Positions 16,578 through 25,895 of a DNA stretch of 29,753 nt are shown one piece after another (within the stretch, counting starts at the first letter, position 1; every line of letters begins with the position of its first letter). Origin of the DNA: a virus (lineage: Duplodnaviria > Heunggongvirae > Uroviricota > Caudoviricetes). Made by a program: the position numbers and the translations under genes. Where the stretch lies: positions 1 to 29,753 of IMG/VR virus record IMGVR_UViG_2541047785_000004. One strand, written 5' to 3'. Under the pieces are notes generated by a model. That model was not told the DNA's origin, made no database searches, and saw nothing but the letters and a program-made list of their open reading frames with translations.

Positions 16578-16733
16578 TTACTTCTCAGATTCGTAGTCCA
16601 CGAAGACAGCAACCTCCGTCTGGCCGGTTCGGATTCGTACCTCGCAGAGGTCTTTCCTCGTTACCAGTGCCGTCACTATGACGGTTAAACAGATGACGAT
16701 CAGGGCGATTAACATCGCCTTTTGCTGCTTCAT
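16578..16733 (-). CDS. hok: Hok/Gef-family type I toxin (HokD/RelF-like), 51 aa
   Basis: MKQQKAMLIALIVICLTVIVTALVTRKDLCEVRIRTGQTEVAVFVDYESEK: single TM helix plus the conserved LTRK.LCE.R...EVA.F..YE tail of Hok proteins; AAGGAG RBS 9 nt upstream; stable hairpin GGCGGGAG/CTCCCGCC (16547-16568) in the 3' region. Confidence 0.8.
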   Translation of the reverse strand: MKQQKAMLIALIVICLTVIVTALVTRKDLCEVRIRTGQTEVAVFVDYESEK

Positions 16734-17023
16734 AGCCTGCTTCTCCTTGCCTTTCGGCACGTAAGAGGCTAACCTAGATTTGCCGTTCATAGATTGAGCC
16801 TCAGATTAATGTTAAGCGTCTTGCAGGACGCGTAATGTTAACTGGGCTTTTCTTTATCTGCCTTTTGATGTTCATGCCTGAGACAGATAGCCTCAAGCAC
16901 CCGCAGCGATTTTACTTACCCTCCCCTCTAGTTCATTCGATACTACAACTTTATTTTCTTTTCGTTGTCTATATAGTAAATAACATGTAATAAAAGTTAG
17001 TCACTAACAATGGAGAGATGCAT

Positions 17024-24371: not shown

Positions 24372-24761
24372 ATGGAATTTAAAGATTTACCAAAAGAAAT
24401 CCAAGAAATTGCAGCACATACACTTCGTCAACGTCTGAACGAAGTTGCATTAGAAGCTGAAACGAAAAAAGACATTGATAATATGGCTCGTAATGTGCGC
24501 GATGCGTTTACCGGACTGTATTCTGTTTCTGTTGAGGACAATAACATTCCTGACGAACAGGAAGAGAGTACAGACCCCCACAAATTCTGGAAATCTGTAG
24601 AGGTCATTGCAAAAGCCAAACTACTGGAACTTAACAACTTATATCATCGTGAGAATGATGGTCGTCAATCTTTGCATCATCAGGGAGTCGCCACCCTGAT
24701 AGCTCTAACGAAAGAGCAAGGCGAATATCATCCAGTGGCATTAAACGACACTGTGAAATAG
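24372..24761 (+). CDS. Hypothetical early-left protein, 129 aa (3' end overlaps a convergent ORF)
   Basis: GAGG RBS 7 nt upstream of the ATG at 24372; amphipathic charged N-terminal region; last ~40 codons overlap the minus-strand ORF 24631-24930. Confidence 0.5.
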   Translation: MEFKDLPKEIQEIAAHTLRQRLNEVALEAETKKDIDNMARNVRDAFTGLYSVSVEDNNIPDEQEESTDPHKFWKSVEVIAKAKLLELNNLYHRENDGRQSLHHQGVATLIALTKEQGEYHPVALNDTVK

Positions 24762-24930
24762 TCCATCCATGTTTACGGGATAGATAAAGATATATCGCTT
24801 CGAAACCATCGACATGGTTTGGATAGCCTTCCTCAGCAGCAAGGTTATCCCCAAAACATTCAAGAATATAATTTAAACGCGCTGTTTCATAATGAATCTT
24901 CCAGCGAGTCTGATTTAGTTTGCTGACCAT
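24631..24930 (-). CDS. Hypothetical protein at the sieB-equivalent (convergent) slot, ~99 aa from the ATG at 24930
   Basis: GGAGGA 10 nt upstream of the ATG at 24930; MVSKLNQTRWKIHYETARLNYILECFGDNLAAEEGYPNHVDGFEAIYLYLSRKHGW...; convergent with the early-left operon. Confidence 0.45.
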   Translation of the reverse strand: MVSKLNQTRWKIHYETARLNYILECFGDNLAAEEGYPNHVDGFEAIYLYLSRKHGWTISQCRLMPLDDIRLALSLELSGWRLPDDAKIDDHHSHDDISC

Positions 24931-25278
24931 TTTAATTTTATCCTCCATTGAGGTTACTGGTTGAGAATGGAGACCACACGTGACAGCGCGTGGTCGTGCG
25001 CCGGACACGGATAAGAATCCGGCACAAACAGTTTACTGAAAGGATATATCCCTGAAAAGTCAGGGCATAACGCGAAAGCGCACGGCGAAGTCATTCCTCC
25101 CTTTGTTGTGTACCACTGACATCTTCGTCTGTGCGCTTCCGGTTGTGGCAATCCGCGAAATGGCGCGGCGGTAAGTATGGCGGGGTTATTCCTTCCCCGT
25201 TGAGGACACCGGGTTGTCAGGTTGACCATACGCTTAAGTGACAACCCCGCTGCAACAACCCATGTTGATTACCTTTTG

Positions 25279-25328
25279 GCGGGTATCCGTTTTTTGTTTT
25301 CCCTTGTGATACCCGCCCTTTTTAAAGT
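25279..25328 (+). terminator. Plus-strand intrinsic terminator-like hairpin (10-bp stem ggcgggtatc/gatacccgcc, 20-nt loop, then CTTTTTAAA)
   Basis: Seen directly; in the GC-rich non-coding stretch of the early-left operon. Confidence 0.45.
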
Positions 25329-25506
25329 GAATTTTGTGATGCGGTGAATGCGGCTCAGCGCACGCGGAACAGTTAAAAAGGCCAGTTGACTTCCGTATTG
25401 GTTCTTATGGGTGGGTTCTCTGTATCCGGCGTTAATTATTAACTGGTTAACGTCACCTGGAGGCACCAGGCACCGCATCACAAAATTCATTGTTGAGGAT
25501 GCGATA

Positions 25507-25689
25507 ATGGAAACGTTATTACCAAACGTCAATACGTCTGAAGGTTGTTTTGAAATTGGTGTCAGAATCAGTAACCCTGTATTTACTGAAGATGCCATTA
25601 ATAAGAGAAAACACGAACGGGAGCTATTAAATCAAATATGCATTGTTTCAATGCTGGCCCGTTTACGCCTGATGCAAAAAGGACGATGA
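25507..25689 (+). CDS. Small early protein (KilR/YdaE-position), 60 aa
   Basis: GAGGA RBS before the ATG at 25507; METLLPNVNTSEGCFEIGVRISNPVFTEDAINKRKHERELLNQICIVSMLARLRLMQKGR; stop overlaps the next start (ATGA). Confidence 0.5.
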   Translation: METLLPNVNTSEGCFEIGVRISNPVFTEDAINKRKHERELLNQICIVSMLARLRLMQKGR

Positions 25690-25895
25690 CAATGAATACA
25701 GTATTTGCACTCGTTCTGACGGTTTTTCTTAATACAGGCGAGCCAGTCGATCTTGTTATTGGTATACATGACTCAATGAAAGAATGCATGGCTGCCGCAG
25801 CGGAACAGAAAATTCCCGGCAACTGTTATCCGGTTGATAAAGTTATTCGCATGGACAATAACGAAATCCCGGCAGGACTTAAAACAGCACCGTAA
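25686..25895 (+). CDS. Small protein with hydrophobic N-terminus (signal/anchor-like), 69 aa
   Basis: MTMNTVFALVLTVFLNTGEPVDLVIGIHDSMKECMAAAAEQKIPGNCYPVDKVIRMDNNEIPAGLKTAP; translationally coupled to the upstream ORF. Confidence 0.5.
   Translation: MTMNTVFALVLTVFLNTGEPVDLVIGIHDSMKECMAAAAEQKIPGNCYPVDKVIRMDNNEIPAGLKTAP

Follow-up and report, generated by a model that had tools for sequence, protein, structure and literature searches.

An intercistronic RNA upstream of dicB with a predicted non-DicF small RNA and an STnc100-like domain closed by an inverted repeat

Introduction

DicF is a textbook prophage small RNA (sRNA) that blocks cell division, rewires metabolism and is implicated in the virulence of enterohaemorrhagic Escherichia coli. 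The present analysis concerns the noncoding stretch directly upstream of the dicB gene in a tailed phage (Caudoviricetes), IMG/VR record IMGVR_UViG_2541047785_000004; all positions refer to nucleotides 1 to 29,753 of that record, called the window below. Judged by homology and gene order, the stretch is the counterpart of the ydfC-dicF-dicB spacer in the early-left dicBF operon of the E. coli K-12 prophage Qin. It probably acts as an untranslated intercistronic RNA that provides a platform for the expression and processing of an sRNA and, further downstream, a processing site before dicB.

Later texts that relate the K-12 work describe a 190-nt DicF species with a 5′ end generated by RNase III and a 53-nt species with a 5′ end generated by RNase E, with no promoter inside the operon; a 72-nt form is described there as having an RNase III-generated 3′ end. 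Two RNase III atlases mention DicF in their main texts, solely as a case already known. KilS, an sRNA of the K-12 prophage Rac, was first predicted on the basis of Hfq RIL-seq data; a northern blot then confirmed it. Finally, STnc100, also known as EcOnc27, is an Hfq-binding prophage sRNA found downstream of stx2B and a relative of PasD.

Results

Correspondence to the K-12 dicBF operon

The true noncoding interval spans 24762-25506 and is directly followed by dicB, which matches the Pfam DicB family with E = 1.5e-37 and is also called dicB by PGAP in a 100%-identical E. coli chromosome.

25495-25689, plus strand: Shine-Dalgarno sequence GAGGA (25495-25499) and dicB (25507-25689), from Pfam and PGAP

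An earlier note on this DNA, made from the sequence alone, had described a GC-rich, hairpin-dense stretch without a convincing open reading frame (ORF) at this place and had proposed an attenuator, a processed RNA or a miniature inverted-repeat insertion. Its structural calls proved sound, while dicB, the DicF locus and the relation to STnc100 had not been recognised. The lack of a convincing ORF holds: PGAP places no feature between 24761 and 25507 in the identical genome, and the ORFs inside the stretch, including minus-strand ones of 96 and 109 aa and small plus-strand ones, have no match in Pfam or PHROG. The enrichment in GC is real but modest, at 0.49-0.54 in 24900-25300 versus 0.38-0.44 in most of the flanking sequence. 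A disrupted ordinary coding sequence, the outcome that the note had named as speaking against it, was rejected, given that no related genome shows an ORF spanning the stretch. Short "hypothetical proteins" are annotated over the leader in some phage records, but the conservation pattern at the RNA level argues against them. A promoter scan returned two promoter-like sites, which is below chance expectation, with none on the plus strand inside the stretch, and an independent promoter is therefore not supported.

Homology to K-12 Qin and to phage Tritos starts near 24995, and the feature under the match in the Tritos record is annotated as "DicF antisense sRNA". By BLAST, 4710 of the 5426 complete E. 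coli genomes have a related region, and a single genome can contain it at as many as 10 sites. Segment-wise alignment shows that the identity to K-12 Qin is sharply mosaic along the stretch:

24995-25090: 87.5% identity
25091-25130: 40% identity, apical loop of the long leader stem
25131-25256: 99.2% identity
25257-25317: 48.5% identity, the DicF position
25318-25378: 96.7% identity
25379-25412: 35% identity, variable hairpin P3 of the inverted-repeat unit
25413-25506: 95.7% identity

The locus shares with the K-12 dicBF operon (ydfABC-dicF-dicB) its position, a leader with 87-99% identity, a dicF-dicB spacer with 96-97% identity, an sRNA slot closed off by a terminator, a downstream dicB, and a pair of long stems where the RNase III cuts are reported. 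In contrast, the sRNA core of about 60 nt is replaced, and the window has a phrog_1363 gene and a minus-strand ORF where K-12 has ydfB and ydfC.

The inverted repeat as a closing stem

The 20-bp inverted-repeat pair reported by the earlier note is present, with arms at 25328-25346 (TGAATTTTGTGATGCGGTG) and 25471-25489 that are complementary at 19 of 19 positions and separated by 124 nt; the 20th position, G25327/T25490, becomes a G-U pair in RNA. The 19-mer is found only at those two sites in the 29.7-kb window, with 0 expected from 100 shuffles.

25326-25346, plus strand: left arm of the predicted closing stem P1, 19 perfect pairs from 25328
25471-25491, plus strand: right arm of P1, from repeat search, fold and covariation

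The unit folds with -71.5 kcal/mol, at z = -6.8 relative to shuffled sequence, and the 19 perfect pairs of its closing stem extend to 21 in the minimum free energy (MFE) fold and up to about 28 with irregularities if the U-tract of the preceding terminator is included. Compensatory changes are seen at 10 of the 19 pairs (alignment A3, described below), and several positions vary between U-A and U-G, which is possible only in plus-strand RNA. In one lineage the outer arm is wholly different (CAGACCTTGCAATGCAGTG), and in Klebsiella, Raoultella and other Enterobacteriaceae closing stems of 18-24 bp are formed by unrelated arm sequences. As would be expected of an RNase III site, the repeat thereby presents a selected helix of about two turns (at least 20 bp). 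From these comparisons, the inverted repeat is the closing stem of a conserved folded domain and most likely a site of RNase III cutting. Riboswitch-type switching of P1 was considered and is implausible from the helix length alone, and the weaker inverted repeats I2 and I4 (24999-25017 with 25402-25431) were treated as chance.

A miniature inverted-repeat transposable element (MITE), or another insertion at the DNA level, would likewise be a unit of about 160 bp flanked by perfect 19-bp terminal inverted repeats and could occur in up to 10 places per E. coli genome, as the region does. However, all examined copies occupy one operon position inside prophages, between the sRNA terminator and an early gene such as dicB or kilR, and the repeat occurs once in the window. 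The comparison proposed in the earlier note, of related prophages with and without the unit, gave no sign of an indel: a distance of just 5-35 nt between the DicF terminator and the start of dicB is seen in none of the IMG/VR contigs, so that no empty site is found. Furthermore, the arms covary via strand-specific G-U intermediates, other genera keep the stem with unrelated arms, and the interior matches an RNA family model. A mobile or inserted DNA element is thus scarcely credible here.

An STnc100-like inner domain with a conserved pseudoknot

The closing stem encloses an inner domain with the following predicted elements:

25347-25470, plus strand: inner domain, starting with junction J1/2 (AAU)
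25350-25365, plus strand: helix P2
25370-25376, plus strand: pseudoknot strand CAGUUAA
about 25377-25427, plus strand: hairpin P3, variable
25428-25438 with 25444-25454, plus strand: helix P4
25439-25445, plus strand: pseudoknot strand UUAACUG in the P4 loop
25456-25460 with 25466-25470, plus strand: helix P5

The AT palindromes pointed out earlier are real and belong to helix P4 and to the pseudoknot strand (TTAACTG in the DNA, 25439-25445). Alignment A3 comprises 17 non-redundant operon-embedded members and a structure consisting of the closing stem, P2, the base of P3, P4 and P5, in which 95.5% of the cells are paired. Changes on both sides occur at 17 of the 43 pairs compared with 6.7 +/- 2.0 in shuffled alignments, none of the 500 shuffles reaching the observed number, and when the 3′ partner was slid by 1-3 columns as a control only 31-40% remained paired. 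In addition, the strand following P2 is complementary to the P4 loop. Across 69 representatives the mean best helix between the two is 7.46 bp in cis versus 6.04 +/- 0.15 bp in trans, with partners permuted, and the relatives realise the pairing with different strands (CUGGUG/CACCGG, AUCAGC/GCUGGU, CCAGUC/GACUGG). The covariation indicates a conserved pseudoknot between the post-P2 strand and the P4 loop.

Conserved blocks might also be nothing more than DNA recombination linkers of mosaic lambdoid genomes, devoid of RNA function. Such a role would account for flanks that are 96-99% identical around an sRNA slot of 48% and a P3 of 35% identity, for breakpoints inside the unit in loci L031, L041 and L053, and for the independent recombination of sRNA seeds and terminator loops. 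It would not explain the compensatory changes in four helices and the pseudoknot, which imply selection on RNA structure, nor the published processing and sRNA data for the K-12 homologues, and we regard it as very unlikely. Recombination in the flanks probably does occur, as a consequence and not as their function.

The domain matches the STnc100 family (RF02076) with 33.5 bits and E = 2.3e-5 over model positions 21-154 of 206, which is below the gathering threshold of 47, and the K-12 Qin unit is likewise a below-threshold match. The Rfam and structure search suggested by the earlier note thus yielded a strong fold and a partial STnc100 match, and DicF was not among its results. All elements of the STnc100 core are present, namely P1, the GGUGAAU junction, P4, P5 (CACCNGGAGGCACCNGGCAC) and the pseudoknot from J2/3 to the P4 loop. 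A stand-alone gene of about 200 nt is not found here, as the unit has no plus-strand promoter-like site upstream and no terminator, and it ends 5 nt before the Shine-Dalgarno sequence of dicB. In comparison with STnc100 (EcOnc27) and PasD, which also reside in phages and prophages of Enterobacteriaceae, the unit has P1, the AAU junction, P2, P4, UCA, P5 (CACCNGGAGGCACCNGGCACC) and the pseudoknot in common. It differs in the sequence of P2, in a P1 lengthened from about 8 bp to 19-28 bp, in lacking a promoter, seed tail and terminator of its own, and in being embedded 5′ of a coding gene. Canonical STnc100 genes, which scored 57-132 bits in a second IMG/VR scan, have a promoter-like sequence just 5′ of an 8-bp P1 and a variable tail and terminator 3′ of the domain. 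In IMG/VR prophage contigs such genes also occur as tandem arrays of 3-5 diverged copies at spacings of 250-720 nt, with tRNA genes and an IsrI-like RNA as neighbours, and these arrays look like islands of structured sRNA genes.

The family relation raises the alternative that the 164-nt unit is itself a trans-acting sRNA of the STnc100/PasD/EcOnc27 type, with the domain as the functional product; RNase III would release it from the operon transcript, in place of a promoter and terminator of its own. The partial match is significant, P1, P4, P5, the junction motifs and the pseudoknot are common to bona fide genes, the canonical members are Hfq-bound sRNAs, and the inner domain is conserved far beyond the needs of a cleavage site. 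On the other hand, canonical genes carry their variable, presumed seed region and their terminator 3′ of the domain and the embedded unit has neither. The K-12 unit, moreover, yielded 26 reads in an rnc mutant and 0 in the wild type, so that no build-up of the excised domain is seen under those repressed conditions. We consider release of a trans-acting sRNA unlikely, although it is compatible with processing of an intercistronic RNA and does not exclude it.

A non-DicF allele in the sRNA slot

25257-25323, plus strand: sRNA slot with a non-DicF allele, consisting of an AU-rich single-stranded 5′ part (CAUGUUGAUUACCUUUU), terminator stem and U-tract, from folds and K-12 alignment

By its position the predicted RNA occupies the place of DicF: it lies between leader and spacer, has flanks that are 96-99% identical to K-12 and ends in a terminator. 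The terminator-like hairpin seen earlier is a genuine intrinsic terminator with a 10-bp GC-rich stem (25278-25287/25308-25317) followed by C and TTTTT (25319-25323). By its sequence, however, the RNA is not a DicF, as the DicF model (RF00039, gathering threshold 48 bits) has no match in the window at the gathering threshold, nor at E<=10 on 24700-25700, whereas the K-12 locus scores 76.7 bits by the same procedure. The window carries a third type of allele beside DicF and KilS. The predicted products are a mature form of about 50-60 nt and a form of about 190 nt starting near 25136, and the different seed suggests that the targets probably differ as well.

Among about 120 IMG/VR loci, retrieved by an exact motif in the neighbouring unit, canonical DicF is the commonest occupant of the slot, and at least 10 other alleles or mosaics are found. 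While 5′ seeds and terminator loops recombine independently among the alleles, every one of them keeps the GGCGG...CCGCC terminator stem followed by the U-tract. The allele of the window is present in 158 of the 5426 complete E. coli genomes (about 3%), in 82 of them at 99% identity or more, and never lies under an annotated feature; a single deposited phage record contains it. A full-text literature search with the slot and arm sequences returned nothing relevant. HnrS, a multicopy prophage sRNA, was considered and rejected, as it lies in the late region and is unrelated.

The closest parallel is found in the K-12 prophage Rac, where KilS is the annotated ncRNA b4833 in the corresponding slot, directly upstream of an inverted-repeat unit of the same type and kilR. 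The KilS/kilR locus has in common with the window a long stem in the leader, an sRNA that ends in GGCGG...CCGCC, an STnc100-like unit closed by an inverted repeat, and a gene for an FtsZ inhibitor. It differs in the seed (GCUGUGUGUAGUC...) and terminator loop of KilS, in the absence of the three-hairpin block described below, and in having kilR instead of dicB downstream. KilS demonstrates that non-DicF alleles of the slot are expressed as Hfq-associated sRNAs.

A side observation concerns phage phiSTEC1589-Stx1c, in which the kil-type gene that follows the inverted-repeat unit bears the annotation "cell division protein FtsZ", probably in error for a KilR-type FtsZ inhibitor.

The terminator also bears on the attenuator suggested earlier. 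An intrinsic terminator is indeed present in mid-operon and ends the sRNA, but the inverted repeat lies downstream of it and therefore cannot act as an antiterminator. The folds contain no convincing antiterminator pairing upstream, though no systematic search for one was made.

The leader

The leader spans 24995-25256 and has the following predicted parts:

24997-25065, plus strand: 5′ part with hairpins H1 (25000-25005/25018-25023) and H2 (CCCTGAAAAGTCAGGG, 25050-25065), in both MFE and centroid folds
25066-25148, plus strand: long interrupted stem, predicted to be the upstream RNase III site; arms at about 25066-25090 and 25123-25148, apical loop variable
25153-25250, plus strand: three-hairpin block with H3 (25153-25168), H4 (about 25179-25201) and H5 (25211-25247), which holds the 9-bp stem 25211-25219/25239-25247

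H1 and H2 recur in related loci. In the long stem, 5 of the 18 consensus pairs show compensatory double changes (RNAalifold, 12 diverse variants), and the arms are conserved while the apex (25091-25130) varies freely. The three-hairpin block, which contains the 9-bp stem correctly noted before, would make up the main part of the predicted species of about 190 nt. It has homologues in the "dicF-like region" of the P1 and P7 ban operon and in Salmonella phage F1055, and in their alignment (A4) H4 and H5 have a single compensatory pair each, one pair is broken in P1/P7, and the H5 loop (GGTTGACCAT.CGC.T.AG) hardly varies. The block is missing from Rac/KilS-type loci, which is why KilS has 98 nt instead of 190 nt.

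The ban operon region of P1 and P7 is 77-82% identical to 25153-25250, is followed by a terminator-ended RNA and sits downstream of a repressor-controlled early promoter, as here. It differs in the sequence of the terminator RNA and in having tRNA genes next to it in place of an STnc100-like unit. As an observation in its own right, the P1 "dicF-like region" (AF234173 68414-68573) matches the three-hairpin block and not DicF proper; it lies just downstream of the C1-controlled Pban promoter and upstream of tRNA-Asn and tRNA-Thr.

Reported cleavage positions and proposed processing

The cut positions given for K-12 in the literature cited above were transferred to the window through alignment A2. 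On this map the 190-nt DicF begins at 25136-25141, within the right arm of the upstream long stem, and the 72-nt form ends at 25337, the 10th of the 19 positions in the left arm of the inverted repeat. Both reported RNase III events therefore fall on the two longest predicted duplexes of the region, and the earlier suggestion of a processed RNA gains force from their coincidence with two covarying long stems. In a published RNA-seq table comparing rnc mutant and wild type, one coverage-ratio peak (1649470) falls within the K-12 unit, with 26 mutant reads versus 0 in the wild type, and was flagged by the authors as a known site; another (1418510) falls within the leader stem of Rac, 8 nt before KilS begins.

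The annotated 5′ end of KilS is itself located in the right arm of the Rac leader long stem, with the rnc-dependent peak 8 nt upstream (NC_000913.3 1418405-1418510). It may be an RNase III product like the 190-nt DicF rather than a transcription start.

From these coincidences the following course of events may be proposed. Transcription would run left to right across the leader from a repressor-controlled promoter upstream of the DUF1391 gene. First, RNase III would cut the stem 25066-25148 and generate the 5′ end of the form of about 190 nt. Next, RNase E would cut the AU-rich single strand just upstream of the terminator hairpin, giving an Hfq-type sRNA of about 50-60 nt that ends with the terminator (25278-25323). 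Transcripts that read through the terminator would form the closing stem of 19-21 bp (25326-25346 with 25471-25491), and RNase III would cut it mid-way near 25337 and 25480, the right-arm position (about 25479-25483) being deduced from the usual 2-nt staggered geometry of the enzyme. Finally, the downstream cut would trim the read-through sRNA, excise the pseudoknotted inner domain and leave a dicB mRNA with a 5′ untranslated region of about 25-28 nt.

The unit could also be a cis-acting 5′ element that protects or regulates toxic genes such as dicB and kilR. It might do so by blocking RNase E scanning or the loading of Rho along an extended untranslated RNA, or else by masking the ribosome-binding site (RBS) until RNase III cuts, as is the case for adhE and the lambda N leader. 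The unit is always directly followed by a Shine-Dalgarno sequence and a gene, which may be dicB, kilR, a 283-aa gene or one for small membrane peptides, and kilR expression is known from the literature to depend on read-through limited by NusG and Rho. The helix can be extended to about 28 bp in both dicB and kilR types by different partners of the U-tract: in kilR-type loci UUUUU can pair with AAAAA next to the Shine-Dalgarno sequence, and in dicB-type loci with GAGGA itself. An RNase III cut could therefore unmask the RBS. In the window, however, the U-tract (25319-25323) pairs only weakly with GAGGA in the MFE fold and the extension is missing from the centroid fold, and a closing stem of 19-28 bp is too stable for a reversible switch. 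A cis-acting element of this kind is possible but doubtful.

Neighbouring genes and other elements of the window

In the 100%-identical E. coli chromosome, PGAP gives the order LexA-family repressor, DUF1391 gene (ydfA-like), hypothetical protein, gap, dicB, DUF1482 gene, exonuclease, excisionase-like gene and integrase, which is that of a lambdoid prophage early-left operon. The gene directly upstream of the noncoding stretch is a phrog_1363 gene (24372-24761, PHROG match).

Between this gene and the leader lies a minus-strand ORF of 105 aa (24634-24948) without a Pfam or PHROG match. In a tblastn comparison it shows 65% identity (6e-31) to a protein that is annotated as hypothetical in phage phiSTEC1589-Stx1c. 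About 128 nt of it overlap the plus-strand gene at the 3′ end of the latter, and PGAP leaves it unannotated in the identical genome. The ORF may be a genuine moron in antisense orientation, whose promoter would then lie in 24950-25000.

The only Rfam match at the gathering threshold in the whole window is a sok antitoxin RNA at 16728-16902 on the minus strand (RF01794, 95.6 bits, full length), which points to a toxin-antitoxin module of the hok/sok type in this prophage. Metagenome-assembled genomes labelled Veillonella, Nanosynbacter, Collinsella and "Proteobacteria" also contain units that are identical to Rac- or Qin-type sequence of E. coli, most likely through binning contamination by E. 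coli prophage contigs.

Discussion

The structured RNA region upstream of dicB is genuine and non-random, and most of it can be explained from the K-12 dicBF literature. The interpretation as a processed intercistronic RNA draws on results obtained directly in this analysis: homology and synteny, the replacement in the slot, the covariation of the stems, inner helices and pseudoknot, and the coincidence with the K-12 positions. Matters of inference are the occurrence of cleavage in this prophage and its precise positions, the mature 5′ end of the sRNA, its targets, and any effect on the translation or stability of dicB mRNA.

RNase III sites occur in the leader of lambda N and in early mRNAs of T7, and RNase III unmasks the RBS of adhE. 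The window resembles these cases in having a stem of about two turns in an early transcript, directly 5′ of an RBS and a predicted substrate of the host RNase III. In contrast to them, its stem closes a pseudoknotted domain of about 125 nt, and one and the same cut would also make the 3′ end of the read-through sRNA.

Several points weigh against the proposed processing. The evidence for cleavage comes from the K-12 homologue only, where the cut sites are known through secondary citations, and the RNA-seq support is weak, with 26 and 41 reads versus 0 and a resolution of tens of nucleotides. A plain hairpin would suffice for RNase III, and the cleavage model leaves the conserved pseudoknotted inner domain unexplained. 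In dicB-type loci the U-tract pairs weakly with the Shine-Dalgarno sequence, through a helix rich in G-U, and before the 283-aa gene the extension is absent. According to the transcription start site data of Bar et al., KilS may have a promoter of its own. Finally, in a crude duplex-energy test (RNAduplex) on the 39-nt ftsZ region -30..+9, a 160-nt target being uninformative as it was dominated by long loops, DicF reached -27.9 kcal/mol, with 3% of shuffles as good. The allele of the window gave -18.4 kcal/mol versus -20.5 +/- 3.6 for shuffles, 70% of which were at least as good. As its pairing with the ftsZ RBS is no better than chance, a DicF-like function cannot be assumed.

In relation to the literature found, three aspects appear to be new: the inverted repeat as an RNase III-type closing stem of a long-stemmed, below-threshold STnc100 relative with a conserved pseudoknot; DicF, KilS and the RNA of the window as alternative occupants of one slot; and this unannotated sRNA allele. 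Rfam and the annotation pipelines leave the interval between the upstream gene and dicB blank, although the processing architecture is kept and a different sRNA is carried, in strains that include O121 and O55:H7. The view of one slot with exchangeable occupants offers a concrete route for finding and comparing prophage sRNAs with different host targets. Furthermore, the biochemical RNase III cuts of K-12 become tied to two specific covarying stems, and recognition of the spacer before dicB and kilR as an STnc100 relative makes the function of the domain directly testable.

A wider proposition, which we put forward tentatively as a possibility with the odds somewhat against it, is that the DicF locus is a general platform for swappable sRNAs in enterobacterial temperate phages and, jointly, that the STnc100-like domain is a functional RNA class. 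The domain is found either as the 5′ body of stand-alone sRNAs or embedded before genes for cell-division inhibitors. If the proposition is true, it would be more than a cleavage site, with the binding of a host or phage factor or the shielding of downstream RNA from RNase E or Rho as candidate roles. RNase III-flanked scaffolds would then present swappable seed and terminator cassettes (DicF, KilS, the allele of the window and at least 6 others), and each prophage lineage would aim a different sRNA at its host by means of the same biogenesis machinery.

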